From: Tagaea sp.
Lineage (GTDB): Bacteria; Pseudomonadota; Alphaproteobacteria; CACIAM-22H2
Direction of reading: 5' to 3'
Length of the DNA: 64,000 nucleotides
NCBI GenBank assembly: GCA_965279525.1
Contig: CBDIIB010000005.1
Span: 960,001 to 1,024,000, forward strand
The translations under genes and the position numbers were made by a program. Below, in pieces: positions 45,491 to 50,564 of the stretch. The stretch's first letter is position 1. Every line of letters begins with the position of its first letter. The notes below the pieces were generated by a model, which saw only the letters and a list, made by a program, of their open reading frames with translations, did not search any database and had not been told where the DNA came from.

Positions 45491-47149
45491 TTACGCAGCC
45501 GGAAGCCGGATCCGGAATCGGGCGCCACGGATTTCCCCATTGGAATCATGGCGATTTTCGGCCTCGATCACGCCGCCGTGGGCTTCGACGATCTGACGGG
45601 AGATCGACAGGCCCAGACCGGAGTGGGTTCCGAATTTTTCGGCCGCCGGGCGCTCGGAATAGAACCTTTCGAAGATCGATTCGAGCTTGTCGGCCGGTAT
45701 GCCGGGGCCGTCGTCGTCGATTGTCACGGTGACAAACTCGCCCGCCCGGCCCACGGCGATCCGGACCTCGGCCCCGGGCGGGCTGAAAGACTGCGCATTC
45801 GCGATCACATTGCGGAAGACCTGGCCGAGCCGGTCGGCGATGCCCATCACGGCGAACGGGCCGGCGCCGGCCCGGGTCAGGACGGGCTTCGCCTGGTCGG
45901 GCTTGGCGACGGCAGAAAGCGCGTCGACCAGCCCGCCGAGCACTTCGGAAAGATCGACGGGCTCGGCATTGGTGCGGCTGAGTTCGGCATCCAGACGCGA
46001 GGCTCCAGCGATGTCGGTGATCAGCCGGTCGAGCCTTGCGACGTCGTCGAGCACGATGGCCATCAGCTTCTCGCGGACGGCAAGGTCGGGAACCCGTGCG
46101 GCCGTCTCGACGGCACTCTTGAGCGACGTCAGCGGGTTCTTGAGCTCGTGCGCGACGTCGGCCGCGAACCGGTCGATGGCGTCAAGGCGGCGCGACAGCG
46201 CGTCGGTCATCTCCCGCAGGGCCGCGGACAGGTCGCCGATTTCATCGCCGCGCGCCGACAGGTCGGGAATGGCGCCGGCGAGTGCCGCCCCCGCCCCCAG
46301 CGTGCCGCCGATCCGCGCGCGTGTCCCGCCGGTGCGCACCCGGTCGGCGGCCCGCGCGAGCCGGCGGATCGGTCGCGCGATCGTGCCGGCAAGATAGAGC
46401 GACAACAGGACGGTCAGCAGAAGCGTGACGCCCGCAACCCGCAGGATGTCGCGCCGCACGGTGCGCAGCGCGACCTCGATGTTGCGCCCGTCGCTCGACA
46501 GCATCAGGGCGCCCAGCACCTGCTTGAAGCGCTGGACCGGAACGGCGACCGACAGCAGGACCTGGCCGCTTGCGGTCCGCCGCACCGCCCGTCCACCGTC
46601 GCCGACGAGGGCCGCGATCGCTTCCTCGTAGTCGAGGGCGACCGGATCGCGCCGCTCGCGATAGAGCGGCAGGTTGAGATTGCCGGCAAGCCCGCCGCCG
46701 AAAAAGTCCGACAGCGCGTCGACCGTGCGGCCGGGCAGCGGCGCCGCGGGCTCGGGCGGCGGCAGGATCTCGACTTCGACCGCGAGGCTGCCCTGCCCCA
46801 ACACACGGGTGTCGGCCAGCAGCATCCCGGTGAAGTCGAACAGGCGGGCGCGCACGCGCGTCGGCTCGACGAGACGGCGCAGGATCTGGCGCGCGACGTC
46901 GGGAGCAAGTCGGTCGTCGCGCTCCTCGTCGTCCGGATCGGCGACCGAGACGGCCGCCTCGCCCAGTGCCGCCGCGATGATCTGGCTTTGGGTGGACAGG
47001 GCCTGCAGCTCGGACTCGATCAGGCCGCGGCGGAAATCGTCGAGATAGAGCACGCCCGCCGCCAGCAGAAGCAGCGGCAGCATGTTCAAGAACAGGATGC
47101 GCCGGGTGAGCGGCGAGAAACTTCGGCGGAAACCGAACCGGACGGCCAT
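45491..47149 (-). CDS. chvG: sensor histidine kinase ChvG/ExoS
   Basis: SPLTRRILFLN, SVAVPVQRFKQVLGAL, HAMP, AHELKNPLTSL, FERFYSERP...FGTHSGLGLSIS. Confidence 0.92.
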   Translation of the reverse strand: MAVRFGFRRSFSPLTRRILFLNMLPLLLLAAGVLYLDDFRRGLIESELQALSTQSQIIAAALGEAAVSVADPDDEERDDRLAPDVARQILRRLVEPTRVRARLFDFTGMLLADTRVLGQGSLAVEVEILPPPEPAAPLPGRTVDALSDFFGGGLAGNLNLPLYRERRDPVALDYEEAIAALVGDGGRAVRRTASGQVLLSVAVPVQRFKQVLGALMLSSDGRNIEVALRTVRRDILRVAGVTLLLTVLLSLYLAGTIARPIRRLARAADRVRTGGTRARIGGTLGAGAALAGAIPDLSARGDEIGDLSAALREMTDALSRRLDAIDRFAADVAHELKNPLTSLKSAVETAARVPDLAVREKLMAIVLDDVARLDRLITDIAGASRLDAELSRTNAEPVDLSEVLGGLVDALSAVAKPDQAKPVLTRAGAGPFAVMGIADRLGQVFRNVIANAQSFSPPGAEVRIAVGRAGEFVTVTIDDDGPGIPADKLESIFERFYSERPAAEKFGTHSGLGLSISRQIVEAHGGVIEAENRHDSNGEIRGARFRIRLPAA

Positions 47150-47235
47150 GGCTGGCATTTTAGCGAAGGCCGTGGCGAGATTGCGGCGCGAATTCCAGGC
47201 TCCGGGAATACTCACCCGGCATAAGATTGTATACC

Positions 47236-47267
47236 TTGACGCTTTTCTGATTGTTCTTTAGACGTTC
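47236..47267 (+). promoter_or_regulatory. sigma70 promoter overlapped by an alphaproteobacterial LexA (SOS) box
   Basis: TTGACG (47236-41)-N17-TAGACG (47259-64); GTTC-tttagac-GTTC at 47253-47267. Confidence 0.72.
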
Positions 47268-47294
47268 TCTCCACCTTCGGATGTGGAGAGAACC

Positions 47295-48848
47295 ATGCTT
47301 CAGTCGCCTGAGAATCTTCTGACCCCTTACGCACCCCGCCGCCGCCCGTCGACCCCGGGCGCCGGCGCCGGTGGCTGGTTCGACCTCGACGACTGGGTCG
47401 GCCCCGGCCATCCGAGCACGCGCCCGGACATCGCCAAGCTCGAAGCGATCCTCGCCAACAGCGGGGATTTTCCGATGGAGCGCTTCCAGGGCCCGACCGG
47501 CTACTGGGGCGGCGCGCTCGATCAGGGGATCCGCAGCTACCAGAAGCGCAACGGCCTGAAGGTCGACGGCGCATTGCGCCCCGGCGGCCCGACGATCAGC
47601 CACATGCGCGATTCGTTCGCCAACCTGTTCGACGGCCACGAGCCGCCGACGGTCGAGGACATCGACGCGCATCAAAACGGCGTCGGCGACGACGATCCCG
47701 GGACCATCGCGTGGCGCAAGCCCGCCGTCGACCTGTCGCAGATCCCCGGGCTGCCGGAGATCGACCAGGAAGCCGACGCGTCGAACGTCCGCCTCGTGCG
47801 CGCGATGCTGCGCACCGGCGACATCGAGGGCTACGCGCCGCTGATGCGCGACGCCATCGACCAGGGCGGCAAGAACGCGCTCGCCGAAGTCCGCGACCTC
47901 ACGCTGAAGCTCGATGACGCCTCGCCGGGCCTCGGCGGCCGGTTCGCCGGCTACATCTACGACGGAATGACGAAGGCCCAGCGCGACAGGCTTCAGATCA
48001 AGATGCAGGGCGGCCAGCCGCTCGGCACGGTCCAGGTGGCTCAGGTCGGCGAGATTGTTGACGCCGGAATACTGGGATTGCTCGGAATCGGCACGTTGGC
48101 CAGCGTCATGAATGCGGCAGAAGGCACGCGCAAAGCATTGAGTCCGGGCGAAGTCCCGGGCTCACCGCCGCCACTCGTCCCGCCCGACGATCCGACGCGT
48201 ACGCGGCCGGGGTACGAGGAGATCCCGACGGCCATCGCCGGGCCGACGCATACCGGCCATCCAGCGGAAACGCCGAAGGCTTCGGATGGTATCGAGACGT
48301 TCCCGGCGAAGCCGGGAGAGCGCCGCAAGCAGATCGTCGACGGAATCGTCGCTGAACTGTTCCCGAATATCCTCGAGGCCCGCTACGACGACAAGCGGGG
48401 AACCAAGTGGACGGTGAAAGGAACCAATATCGCCATCCAAGAGATCAGAGATGCGATCGATGATTCCGACATTCCGGAAGATATCGTTCATACCGGCGGC
48501 GGATCCATCGAAGGTGAAGAAGAAGTACACCAGAAGGAAGAGACGATCTGGCACGATGACGGTACGTTCAATCGGCCGGATACGTCCCACCGCGCCGAGG
48601 GCATCAAAGACGACAAGGCATCCATCCAATTCAACACGACAAGTCGAAAAGCTGACGGATCGCTGACGAAGCGCGAGCGGGCAGCTCTCGCGCGTCTGAA
48701 GGGAAAGCTTGGCGACGACGTCATGGGTGACTTGCCGAAGATGCTTGAAGGGCAAAGCGAAGAAGAGTATCGCGCGCTCGTACGGCCAATGATCCGCGAT
48801 GCGGTAAGCAAATTGCGTGACCGGTTGCGCAAAATCCGGGAAGAATGA
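47295..48848 (+). CDS. peptidoglycan-binding-domain protein with putative C-terminal nuclease toxin domain
   Basis: GGAGAG RBS then ATG; PG-binding signature GYWGGALDQGIRSYQKRNGLKVDGALRPGGPT; C-terminal GGG...E...RPD...QFNT...G.LT.RE.AA. Confidence 0.7.
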   Translation: MLQSPENLLTPYAPRRRPSTPGAGAGGWFDLDDWVGPGHPSTRPDIAKLEAILANSGDFPMERFQGPTGYWGGALDQGIRSYQKRNGLKVDGALRPGGPTISHMRDSFANLFDGHEPPTVEDIDAHQNGVGDDDPGTIAWRKPAVDLSQIPGLPEIDQEADASNVRLVRAMLRTGDIEGYAPLMRDAIDQGGKNALAEVRDLTLKLDDASPGLGGRFAGYIYDGMTKAQRDRLQIKMQGGQPLGTVQVAQVGEIVDAGILGLLGIGTLASVMNAAEGTRKALSPGEVPGSPPPLVPPDDPTRTRPGYEEIPTAIAGPTHTGHPAETPKASDGIETFPAKPGERRKQIVDGIVAELFPNILEARYDDKRGTKWTVKGTNIAIQEIRDAIDDSDIPEDIVHTGGGSIEGEEEVHQKEETIWHDDGTFNRPDTSHRAEGIKDDKASIQFNTTSRKADGSLTKRERAALARLKGKLGDDVMGDLPKMLEGQSEEEYRALVRPMIRDAVSKLRDRLRKIREE

Positions 48849-48852
48849 AGCG

Positions 48853-49626
48853 ATGGATTTCGATGAAATGCGCCGTGAAGGCCCGACTCCAGCGGTCATT
48901 CCGAATGCCGGCCGGCGACAGGAAGTCTACTGGATGATCGACGACGCGCAGCGATATGCCGTCCTGCTGCGCAAGGCATTCCCGAAAATCATGTTCTATG
49001 AAACCTTCGAGAAAACAGATGATCTAGAAGAGAAGCCTACAATCCGGATTCTCGATCGTCTTGACGATCCAACGATCCGCAATCACGTAGGTGCGTTTGT
49101 CCCATATGATGGCTGGATACCCAATCTGGTTCGTATCAAAGGTCCAACGCAGAAATTGCGATGGACCTGGTCACGCTATCTGTCGCCGCGCCTACGGTTT
49201 CCTGTCTGGTACGGCCCGAATGCACGACCGGCGGAATGGCGCACGGAACCCGATGCGCCACGCGTCGAGACATGGACAGGCACCAGCATCCTGACTTCCT
49301 ACCGTCGCGAACTGCCGGACGAAGGCCGCATTTCGGACAGGTTTGTCGCGCTGGCACGAAAGCTCTGCATCCGGACCGTGCCGGTCCTATGGAAGTCGAG
49401 CCGCGAATTTCTCGAGGGTGACGGCAAGGTGGCGCGCGGCGGACTCTTGGTCGGTGACGGCTGGACGACACCGGCCGCCGCAGCGTGGTGTCTTGCCGCG
49501 CCCGGTCGGGTGCTTGGGTTCAGTGCTTCTGCCTCCGGAGGCGCGCACGGTTGCCTGCCTGTCGAACTCGTCCCCGACTCATGGTGGGGCGACATTCCGA
49601 AGCCCAAATGGGCCCAGCGCCCTTAG
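48853..49626 (+). CDS. hypothetical protein, candidate immunity protein
   Basis: ATG 4 nt after the upstream stop; low GC; Trp-rich, no signal peptide or TM; no family recognised. Confidence 0.6.
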   Translation: MDFDEMRREGPTPAVIPNAGRRQEVYWMIDDAQRYAVLLRKAFPKIMFYETFEKTDDLEEKPTIRILDRLDDPTIRNHVGAFVPYDGWIPNLVRIKGPTQKLRWTWSRYLSPRLRFPVWYGPNARPAEWRTEPDAPRVETWTGTSILTSYRRELPDEGRISDRFVALARKLCIRTVPVLWKSSREFLEGDGKVARGGLLVGDGWTTPAAAAWCLAAPGRVLGFSASASGGAHGCLPVELVPDSWWGDIPKPKWAQRP

Positions 49627-49647
49627 GCGCCGATGCGGCCCCCGCCC

Positions 49648-50379
49648 CTACTTCTCCTTGTAACGATACCCCAGGCCGTAGAGCGTCTCGATCTGCGTGA
49701 AATCCGCGTCGACGGCCTTGAACTTCTTGCGCAGGCGCTTGACGTGGCTGTCGATCGTGCGGTCGTCGACGTAGATCGACTCGCCGTAGGCAAGGTCCAT
49801 CAGCTGGTCGCGGCTCTTGACGAGGCCCGGACGCTGGGCGAGCGCTTTCAGCAGCATGAACTCGGTGACGGTCAGCGTCACCGGCTGGCCCTTCCACGTG
49901 CACAAATGCCGTTCGGGATCGAGGGCAAGCTCGCCGCGCACCATCGGCGGCTCGGCGGTCGCCGAGGGCGCTTCGCCGGAATCCGCCGCGCGGTTCGCGG
50001 CCTGGCGGCGCAGCAGGGCGCGGATGCGCTCGACCAGCAGGCGCTGCGAGAAGGGCTTGGTGATGTAGTCGTCCGCACCCAGGCGCAGGCCCATCACCTC
50101 GTCCACCTCGTCGTCCTTCGACGTGAGGAAGATCACCGGCAGGCGCGAATGCGCGCGGATGCGCTCGAGCAGCTGCATGCCGTCCATGCGCGGCATCTTG
50201 ATGTCGAGGATCGCGAGGTCCGGCGGCTCGGCCAGCAACACTTTCAGCGCCTCGGTGCCGTCGGTCCAGCTGCGCACCTTGAAGCCTTCGGCTTCAAGGG
50301 CGACCGAAACGGAGGCGAGGATGTTGCGGTCGTCGTCGACGAGGGCGATGGTCGCTTGCGGAGCCGGGCTGGGGGTCAT
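49648..50379 (-). CDS. chvI: response regulator ChvI
   Basis: [64 protein letters not shown]. Confidence 0.95.
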
Positions 50380-50564
50380 CGTTTCGATCTTGAGCGAGAG
50401 GGCCATGGCGGATCGGGTCCTCGGAATGTCCGGAATTGCGGGCAGTGGGTGAGGCCTACAATCTGGTGCCCGAATGCGGCCCAAATTGGGCGGCGTTTTG
50501 CCCGTTTCCGGACGCGCCGAAGCATCCGATAATCGATGCGCGCACTATAGGGAGAATCGCACGC

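Follow-up and report, generated by a model that had tools for sequence, protein, structure and literature searches.

The question raised by this locus is what is encoded by two adjacent genes of Tagaea sp. that have a possible SOS operator at their head and for neither of which NCBIfam holds a family. They lie on contig CBDIIB010000005.1 of assembly GCA_965279525.1, within a stretch of 64,000 nucleotides (nt; positions 960,001 to 1,024,000 of the forward strand) that was analysed as a whole and is called the window below; coordinates refer to it unless a genome or locus handle is given. Gene 1 (47295-48848, plus strand), with an ATG at 47295 and the stop codon TGA at 48846-48848, is defined by its open reading frame (ORF) and translation and encodes 517 amino acids (aa). 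Gene 2 (48853-49626, plus strand; ATG 48853, stop codon 49624-49626) follows after a gap of 4 nt and encodes 257 aa. A sequence-only reading of the same DNA had described a two-gene unit under a perfect GTTC-N7-GTTC box, proposed to be a colicin-like toxin followed by its immunity gene; this anatomy, its coordinates, the perfect box and the 4-nt gap were borne out by the present analysis. We conclude that the pair is probably a LexA-repressed polymorphic toxin-immunity cassette, closest in its logic to the nuclease colicins and pyocins, with gene 1 as the modular toxin candidate and gene 2 as a proposed cytoplasmic immunity protein.

A first protein search returned 48 proteins at E <= 0.001, among them the query's own entry; most were covered over their full length and they came from Rhodospirillales or Tagaea metagenome genomes. 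A species-level genome collection yielded 25 loci. Among the family members the conserved N-terminal domain (aa 1-245; 47295-48029, plus strand), the proposed delivery or anchoring module, is 50-88% identical to the focal protein and the C-terminal domain, hereafter C-domain, 22-43%, which agrees with the earlier expectation of homologues that share some 245 N-terminal residues and vary at their C-termini. The border between the constant and the variable part is formed by the motif P-x-G-T-V-Q-V-A-Q (aa 242-250; 48018-48044, plus strand), of which P242, G244 and A249 are invariant in 24 aligned sequences; beyond it conservation collapses and the sequences split into subtypes. Within the group of loci that carry a LexA-type box, the tips are not unrelated domains but belong to a single domain family in which they have diverged. 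Co-variation was analysed in 66 pairs from the 12 loci with both genes, in which mean identity was 64% for the N-domain, 35% for the C-domain and 44% for gene 2. The identities of C-domain and gene 2 were correlated with r 0.77, those of N-domain and C-domain with r 0.06 and those of N-domain and gene 2 with r 0.21. The downstream gene, which had been expected to vary, thus varies in step with the C-domain, but not with the N-domain. A homologue of gene 2 stood directly after gene 1 in all 16 loci with a 3' flank.

Loci L016 and L020 occupy one chromosomal site and have N-domains that are 85% and C-domains that are 29% identical; L016 and L017, at different sites, share 86% identity in the C-domain and 85% in gene 2. 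At the focal locus there is a tract of low GC content that takes in exactly two pieces, the C-domain of gene 1 and the adjoining first half of gene 2. The GC fraction, with that of third codon positions in brackets, is 0.70 (0.91) in the N-domain, 0.55 (0.63) in the C-domain, 0.54 (0.57) in the first half of gene 2 and 0.66 (0.72) in its second half, so that the earlier description of gene 2 as low in GC holds for the first half and not for the second, and the tract already begins in gene 1. The pattern is that of cassette exchange, in which the C-domain and the 5' part of gene 2 appear to be swapped as one piece and the low-GC tract would mark the piece exchanged. Several relatives carry additional fragments. 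In L018 the stretch directly downstream holds a C-domain fragment of 62 residues, which belongs to another subtype, and then a second gene 2; L065 has three tandem copies of gene 2 with C-domain fragments between them, L066 one orphan C-domain fragment with a gene 2, and L027 a partial second gene 2. At the focal locus no orphan tip with an immunity module is present.

Among 50 genomes of the order, the C-domain profile had matches in 15, every one of them in a single genus (the own genome and 14 of 20 congeners), and in none of 29 genomes from 14 other genera. Matches per genome ranged from 0 to 4, with 6 of the 20 congeners having none. In a sample of 401 alphaproteobacterial genomes the C-domain was found in 8, namely the own genome and 7 in 5 families. 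This distribution bears on a reading in which gene 1 would be a secreted, wall-anchored nuclease with gene 2 as its intracellular inhibitor, serving nutrition, the turnover of biofilm DNA or DNA uptake and not killing, with a likeness to barnase-barstar and NucA-NuiA. The nuclease-like fold described below, the peptidoglycan-binding anchor and an inhibitor-like partner without signal peptide all suit such a pair. A housekeeping exonuclease should, however, be stable and single-copy, unlike the patchy and sometimes multiple matches seen here, and the diversification and recombination of C-domain and partner as a unit, the orphan arrays and the foreign base composition further argue against it; we regard this reading as very improbable. 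As for mobile elements and known defence systems, tblastn gave no match for the gene 1 protein P0002 in plasmids and phages or for P0001 in plasmids, PADLOC matched neither protein, and PHROGs gave a weak endolysin match to the peptidoglycan-binding part (E 0.0059) and one family of unknown function at 0.079.

The C-domain (aa 366-517; 48390-48845, plus strand), the proposed toxin, has the conserved residues H399, G402, E415, D429, N447, E461 and K482 and is predicted to adopt a restriction-endonuclease-like fold. When 1.84 billion representative proteins, grouped in clusters at 50% identity, were searched with the C-domain profile, 168 clusters matched at E <= 0.001, 91 at 1e-10 and 15 at 1e-30. 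For most of those listed (150 of the 168 clusters) the match ends near the C-terminus, with several unrelated N-termini ahead of it. Among 101 longer proteins with the domain, PG_binding_1 was present in 66; others had long Ala/Arg-rich N-termini without a Pfam family or further unrelated N-termini. Pyocin_S matched one of the 101 weakly (E 8.5e-5) and none of 19 members scanned singly. Modelled by AlphaFold2 from a 45-sequence alignment, the core of the C-domain has a predicted local distance difference test (pLDDT) score of about 90 or more, with block means of 87-98 from residue 51, and the order of its elements in the model is alpha-beta-beta-beta-alpha-beta. The best structural match in VIA-align was the nuclease domain of BpuSI (Z 8.3, root-mean-square deviation 3.4, 120 residues aligned), followed by Bax1 (Z 7.1), Can2 (7.0), Hjc (6.9) and I-Bth0305I (6.9), with AbaSI, D212, EcoRI, PvuRts1I and Vsr among the other top matches; at least 13 of the top 25 rows were nucleases by title. 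D429 stands at the start of strand 2, the position of the "PD" aspartate, and is invariant with Pro or Ser before it. Among the sequences of solved structures the profile found no meaningful match (best E 0.024, to a transthyretin-like protein), and the protein atlas gave only sub-threshold leads (0.85) for the C-domain, to Tox-REase-7 and Tox-REase-2. Tox-REase-7 was found in 2 of the 401 genomes.

Gene 2 belongs to an unnamed family of 16 clusters and matched no significant Pfam family, in agreement with the earlier remark that it has no recognisable one. In 23 sequences 22 columns are invariant, including those of the motifs PNAG and TSYRR. The model of the protein (pLDDT 89.7) gave no match at E <= 0.001 in a Foldseek search of PDB and, in VIA-align, a best Z of 7.7 for an alignment of only 73 residues, the matches forming no coherent family; its profile matched no sequence of a solved structure and the protein atlas gave no lead. 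Homology to gene 2 was found for the genes that follow the C-domain at six distant loci of Alphaproteobacteria (hhalign 97.4%, E 9.9e-12, 204 columns), the set consisting of the six plus-strand loci of nine, with the remaining three, which also have a downstream ORF, left out. The pair therefore travels together, irrespective of the N-terminus. The predicted complex of C-domain and gene 2 reached an ipSAE of 0.86 (0.87, 0.86 and 0.85 in the individual runs) versus 0.09 for the best of three controls; the runs agreed in at least 87% of contacts and the partner pLDDT was at least 88. The mark set for this score is reached by 58 of 80 solved complexes and by 2 of 110 mismatched pairs, counts that hold only roughly here because our own alignments were used. 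In the predicted interface, the PNAG and TSYRR motifs of gene 2 meet two parts of the C-domain, helix 1 and the loop carrying E415. Gene 2 is accordingly predicted to bind the C-domain, and from this prediction and the co-variation we infer that it would protect the producer against it.

The upstream regions of 16 related loci align as a single module of ~80 nt, in the order ATAAGATTGTATACC, TTGAC, ~9 nt, TGATT, GTTC-N7-GTTC, hairpin and ATG. In the focal locus its left edge is the element CATAAGATTGTATACC (47220-47235, plus strand), which is near-invariant in the 16 aligned regions and at which the homology between the two cassette copies of this genome starts. It is followed by the -35-like hexamer TTGACG (47236-47241, plus strand), present as TTGAC in 15 of the 16 loci and as TTTAC in L025, and by the LexA-type box GTTCTTTAGACGTTC (47253-47267, plus strand). 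Because TTGACG ends 11 nt upstream of the box, the latter lies over the expected -10 position. The conserved boxes that had been predicted upstream of homologues were present: 14 of the 16 loci have a perfect box and two (L020 and L021) have one mismatch. The 7-nt spacer varies among the 16 loci and reads TATAATC in L018. GTTC-N7-GTTC appears as the operator of Caulobacter LexA in Table 1 of PMC9578287. In the own genome a perfect box is found upstream of lexA, one perfect and two one-mismatch boxes in the imuA-imuB promoter, two one-mismatch boxes at recA and one in the uvrA/ssb spacer. Genome-wide the bare motif occurs 73 times versus 62 times for a reversed control, which is no enrichment, and the weight of the box therefore comes from its position and conservation. 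Both features point to LexA (SOS) control of the cassette.

Other perfect boxes were noted in the same genome. A radical-SAM gene (360 aa; G000:C5:633267-634390) has one 27 nt upstream and possibly encodes an SplB-type DNA repair enzyme of the SOS regulon; the boxes near metG, pepA/lptF, a gene of dctQ type and a gene for an M81 peptidase are apparently there by chance. Two more, at G000:C5:687800 and G000:C5:1165426, have AT-rich spacers, stand behind TTGAC and precede small or unannotated ORFs, one of which (1165422-1165760) encodes a Cys-rich protein of 112 aa; they may belong to SOS genes not recognised so far. L075 and L077 (genomes G765 and G644) encode distant C-domain proteins of 636-639 aa with a different N-terminus. 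Some 65 nt upstream they share a one-mismatch box, GTTGTCAAT(T/A)TGTTC, a hint that LexA control may extend to another family of Alphaproteobacteria.

A second, presumably regulatory element of the module is the 5' leader hairpin (47264-47293, plus strand), with an 11-bp stem and an 8-nt loop, in which the Shine-Dalgarno sequence GGAG (47285-47288) is paired. Its minimum free energy is -18.5 kcal/mol (z -3.08), and the consensus from 15 loci has 8 pairs, 2 of them with compensatory double changes. A terminator-like site was called once, inside gene 1 on the minus strand, which is no more than expected by chance. Control by box and hairpin would also suit a self-directed SOS module, a chromosomal toxin-antitoxin or altruistic-death system and not a weapon against neighbours, in which the nuclease would kill or arrest the damaged producer, or break down its DNA, with gene 2 as the antitoxin. 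Hairpins that sequester the ribosome-binding site are common for tightly held toxins and Caulobacter has an SOS-induced endonuclease, BapE; the LexA-type box, the sequestering hairpin, the cytoplasmic partner predicted to bind and the lack of an export signal, lysis gene or secretion gene are all compatible with this. Half of the protein would, however, then be a peptidoglycan-binding module without a target in the cytoplasm, and the same N-module carries peptidoglycan hydrolases in the siblings discussed below, where genes with signal-peptide-like N-termini follow. Recombining tips and arrays of orphan fragments with immunity genes are moreover the mark of conflict between cells, and a self-directed module would not need many immunity types. 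We therefore consider a self-directed role unlikely and return to the toxin-immunity cassette.

Within the N-module, PG_binding_1 (aa 43-93; 47421-47573, plus strand) was identified with a Pfam E-value of 1.3e-6, above the Pfam cut-off, and was the only Pfam family on the gene 1 protein at E <= 1. The boundary motif contains VQVAQ (aa 246-250). It is followed by a Gly-rich hydrophobic segment (aa 254-272; 48054-48110, plus strand) with a 19-residue Kyte-Doolittle mean of 1.89, the maximum of the protein; in most homologues the value is 1.2-1.75, and the segment is absent in P0014 and P0026. A Pro-rich linker of low model confidence (aa 273-365; 48111-48389, plus strand; pLDDT 44-63 for the modelled part) then leads to the C-domain and holds the conserved SDxIETFPA. 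Peptidoglycan-binding domain, VQVAQ, Gly-rich stretch and linker were all found as the sequence-only reading had described them. Two short stretches deserve separate mention. Residues 26-37 (47370-47405, GGWFDLDDWVGP) are rich in Trp and Asp, near-invariant in the family and recognisable in the hydrolase-tipped siblings; we take them to resemble the Tol-box-like epitopes of colicins. In SDGIETFPA (aa 330-338; 48282-48308) the spacing D-x4-FP matches the first half of the DPY translocation motif; a Q and not a Y stands 8 positions past FP, the stretch is Pro-rich and modelled with low confidence, and the likeness may be a coincidence.

Ten loci (L031-L040) share only the N-domain with the focal protein. 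Their tips include Peptidase_M23 (L037, and also L041 of this genome), Glucosaminidase (L039) and, in the source records, BPSL0067-family by name or PF22322. None of the ten has a perfect LexA-type box, and none of the siblings, L041 included, has a signal peptide. In L036, L039 and L040 the next gene overlaps or lies a few nt away and has a signal-peptide-like N-terminus, which is the pattern expected of a putative periplasm-acting effector with its immunity protein. One N-domain with many tips recalls effector families with a common secretion marker. In a further reading the N-module is such a signal for secretion or anchoring, and a secretion machine encoded elsewhere, perhaps dependent on cell contact, would pass the toxin to neighbouring cells. 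The conserved N-terminal WFDL(D/E)DWVG stretch (24-sequence alignment), the effector-like pairs with periplasmic-looking partners and the absence of a lysis gene are in favour of it. On the other side, type VI TssC was not found in the 97%-complete genome (types I and IV were not searched), no secretion genes lie beside any locus inspected, and SOS control is typical of bacteriocins released by lysis and not of effectors delivered by a machine. Delivery by such a system appears quite unlikely to us.

For the LexA-repressed toxin-immunity cassette the following sequence of events can be proposed. In undamaged cells LexA would occupy the GTTC-N7-GTTC box over the core promoter, and the 5' hairpin, by pairing the ribosome-binding site, would in addition hold back translation. 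Repression would end upon DNA damage, the 4-nt gap being compatible with co-transcription of both genes. The N-module of gene 1, composed of an unstructured head, PG_binding_1 and a domain ending in PxGTVQVA, may provide envelope binding or import, the Gly-rich hydrophobic segment might serve passage of the inner membrane, and the exchangeable C-domain would cleave nucleic acid in the target. In the cytoplasm of the producer gene 2 would bind and neutralise the C-domain, and the released toxin would hit related cells that lack the cognate gene 2. The cassette itself encodes no means of release; SOS-coupled lysis appears the likeliest, and export by an unlinked system is possible. Recombination between cassettes would swap the C-domain with the 5' part of gene 2 and leave orphan fragments behind.

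A number of observations weigh against this reading. The export route is its weakest point. No signal peptide, lysis gene or secretion gene was found in or beside the cassette, as had been noted before; the N-terminus of gene 1 is not hydrophobic (maximum 15-residue hydropathy in the first 35 aa, -0.07), no Pfam trafficking domain is present in gene 1, and the AT-rich-spacer boxes inspected include no SOS-boxed lysis gene. The TssC result given above counts here as well. Concerning the C-domain, the fold matches are middling (Z 5-8) and therefore support a fold and not a function, Foldseek found nothing in PDB at E <= 0.001 for its model, and none of the Pfam toxin families matched it. For Tox-REase-7 and Tox-REase-2 there was no Pfam match, and a low-powered hhalign comparison of A5 with a two-sequence Tox-REase-7 profile gave a probability of 0.2%. 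Strand 3 reads Q-F-N447 and not (D/E)-x-K, a non-canonical catalytic motif, for which the conserved E461 (helix 2) and K482 could substitute. The nuclease-like C-terminus of the earlier reading thus stands as a PD-(D/E)xK-type fold in the model, but not with a canonical catalytic signature; given this strand, it is by inference from the model that we assign the C-domain nuclease activity, a substrate (DNA or RNA) and the role of a nucleic-acid-cleaving toxin.

Further points of this kind concern the promoter, gene 2 and the N-domain. A strict scan for E. coli-type sigma-70 promoters called 0 promoters, so that of the proposed box over a -10 element the perfect box and its position are retained and the -10 itself is deduced from spacing. 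The second GTTC half-site lies within the hairpin stem, and its conservation is therefore not independent evidence for LexA. In the diverged subfamily L066 has a one-mismatch box (GTTC-N7-GATC) and L062 no box within one mismatch, and no box was found at five distant C-domain loci. The size (257 aa) and the good conservation of gene 2 are not what is usually seen in small immunity proteins. Finally, the M23-tipped paralogue of this genome (L041 8373-9803; G000:C5:770373-771803) lies between ubiB-like and coaBC-dut-like genes (names read from the sequence) and has no immunity gene; standing without a partner among housekeeping genes, it indicates that the N-domain is not confined to toxins.

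The cassette is flanked on the left by a gene for a ChvG-type sensor kinase (45491-47215, minus strand; likely start 47152; Sensor_TM1, Stimulus_sens_1, HAMP, HisKA and HATPase_c) and on the right by one for a ChvI-type response regulator (49648-50484, minus strand; Response_reg and Trans_reg_C), whose stop codon is separated from that of gene 2 by 21 nt. In all five cassette-free congeners examined (L067-L071) the two genes adjoin, with ~21-24 nt from the chvI stop to the chvG start, and the 2.4-kb unit is therefore an insertion into the chvI-chvG spacer. It is oriented opposite to the pair that it splits (junctions 47153-47219 and 49627-49647), so that chvG needs a new promoter or read-through, and a side effect on the pathway of this two-component operon is possible. 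A left junction of ~70 nt (CATTTTAGCGAA...GAATTCC) is common to cassettes at the chvG site only. Two insertion sites were recognised, chvG/chvI (the window, L017, L021, L025 and L029) and pyk/dps (L009, L016 and L020); neither an integrase nor terminal repeats were seen at the insertion. The second cassette of this genome (G000:C5:282540-284940; L009 5041-7438) lies between pyruvate-kinase-like and Dps-like genes. Two frameshifts interrupt the 5' part of its gene 1, whereas its gene 2 is intact and its box and leader are identical to those of the focal locus; the toxin may be decaying with its immunity kept, or the frameshifts may be an assembly error.

If the cassette is what we propose, three uncharacterised families gain a testable role, namely the N-module, the restriction-endonuclease-like C-domain and the 257-aa partner. 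They can be traced in metagenomes, the C-domain alone through its 168 clusters, and they offer a natural set of diverged toxin-immunity pairs for studies of specificity. A more far-reaching proposal can be put forward tentatively, as a possibility that we would not yet favour. The cassette would be the first nuclease-bacteriocin family outside the gammaproteobacteria, and its N-module, hitherto unrecognised and with WFDLDDWVG in its unstructured head, a general import or delivery device, which would carry nuclease tips acting in the cytoplasm, under LexA control and with cytoplasmic immunity, as well as peptidoglycan-hydrolase tips acting in the periplasm, with periplasmic immunity. Release would occur by SOS-coupled lysis without a dedicated exporter, and C-domain and gene 2 would form a new fold pair that is found on several unrelated carriers across Alphaproteobacteria.

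Compared with known systems, the C-domain shares with the PD-(D/E)xK nucleases (restriction endonucleases, Hjc, Bax1, Can2) the core order and the invariant Asp that opens strand 2, but differs from them in lacking (D/E)-x-K on strand 3 and in having no sequence-level match to solved chains. The siblings, and not the focal gene, resemble the pesticin and colicin M bacteriocins in their peptidoglycan-degrading tips, the lack of a signal peptide and, in three loci, a next gene of periplasmic-immunity type; the likeness is theirs only, and they are without the LexA box. Restriction-endonuclease-fold toxin domains are a known class, and the adhesion domains listed for toxins include PGB (Zhang et al. 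2012, PMC3482391). With the polymorphic toxin systems of that paper, as its main text describes them, the cassette has in common a constant N-terminus, a boundary motif, a C-terminal toxin that recombines, the cognate immunity gene immediately after it and, in relatives, orphan C-terminal fragments with immunity modules. Unlike them, it showed no recognised trafficking domain, signal peptide or secretion marker (TssC being the only one searched genome-wide), its toxin is short, its toxin and immunity domains have no Pfam family and it carries a LexA-type box, the words SOS and LexA being absent from the text of PMC3482391.

The closest comparison is with the nuclease colicins and S-type pyocins. 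The main text of a survey of nuclease bacteriocins reports them from gammaproteobacteria only and calls the reason unclear, a point on which its taxon tables could bear (Sharp et al. 2017, PMC5536347). As given there, the survey looked for an immunity gene no more than 60 bp downstream, a toxin of 350-950 aa and Pyocin_S with the DPY motif D-x4-FP-x8-Y, and its five cytotoxic families are the HNH DNase, the pyocin S3-type DNase, the E3 rRNase and the E5 or D tRNases (PMC5536347). The cassette is like these bacteriocins in its directly adjacent immunity gene (4 nt), in the length of its toxin, which is within range, in an immunity protein of the cytoplasm for which binding to the cytotoxic domain is predicted and in the LexA-type operator of its promoter. 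It is unlike them in that its PD-(D/E)xK-like fold belongs to none of the five cytotoxic families, neither Pyocin_S nor a translocation domain of colicins was detected and only part of the DPY motif is there. Its immunity protein is large and of no known fold, the N-terminus carries PG_binding_1, no lysis gene is present and the host is an alphaproteobacterium. Searches of the literature for the motif, for peptidoglycan-binding polymorphic toxins, for the genus name and for alphaproteobacterial nuclease bacteriocins gave no description of this family, supplements aside. In summary, the cassette combines a known logic with new parts, neither C-domain nor gene 2 having a family in Pfam, NCBIfam, PADLOC or PHROGs. 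The same logic is built from unrelated parts in an alphaproteobacterium. That nuclease bacteriocins appear restricted to gammaproteobacteria may therefore be due to the models used in searching for them, not to biology.

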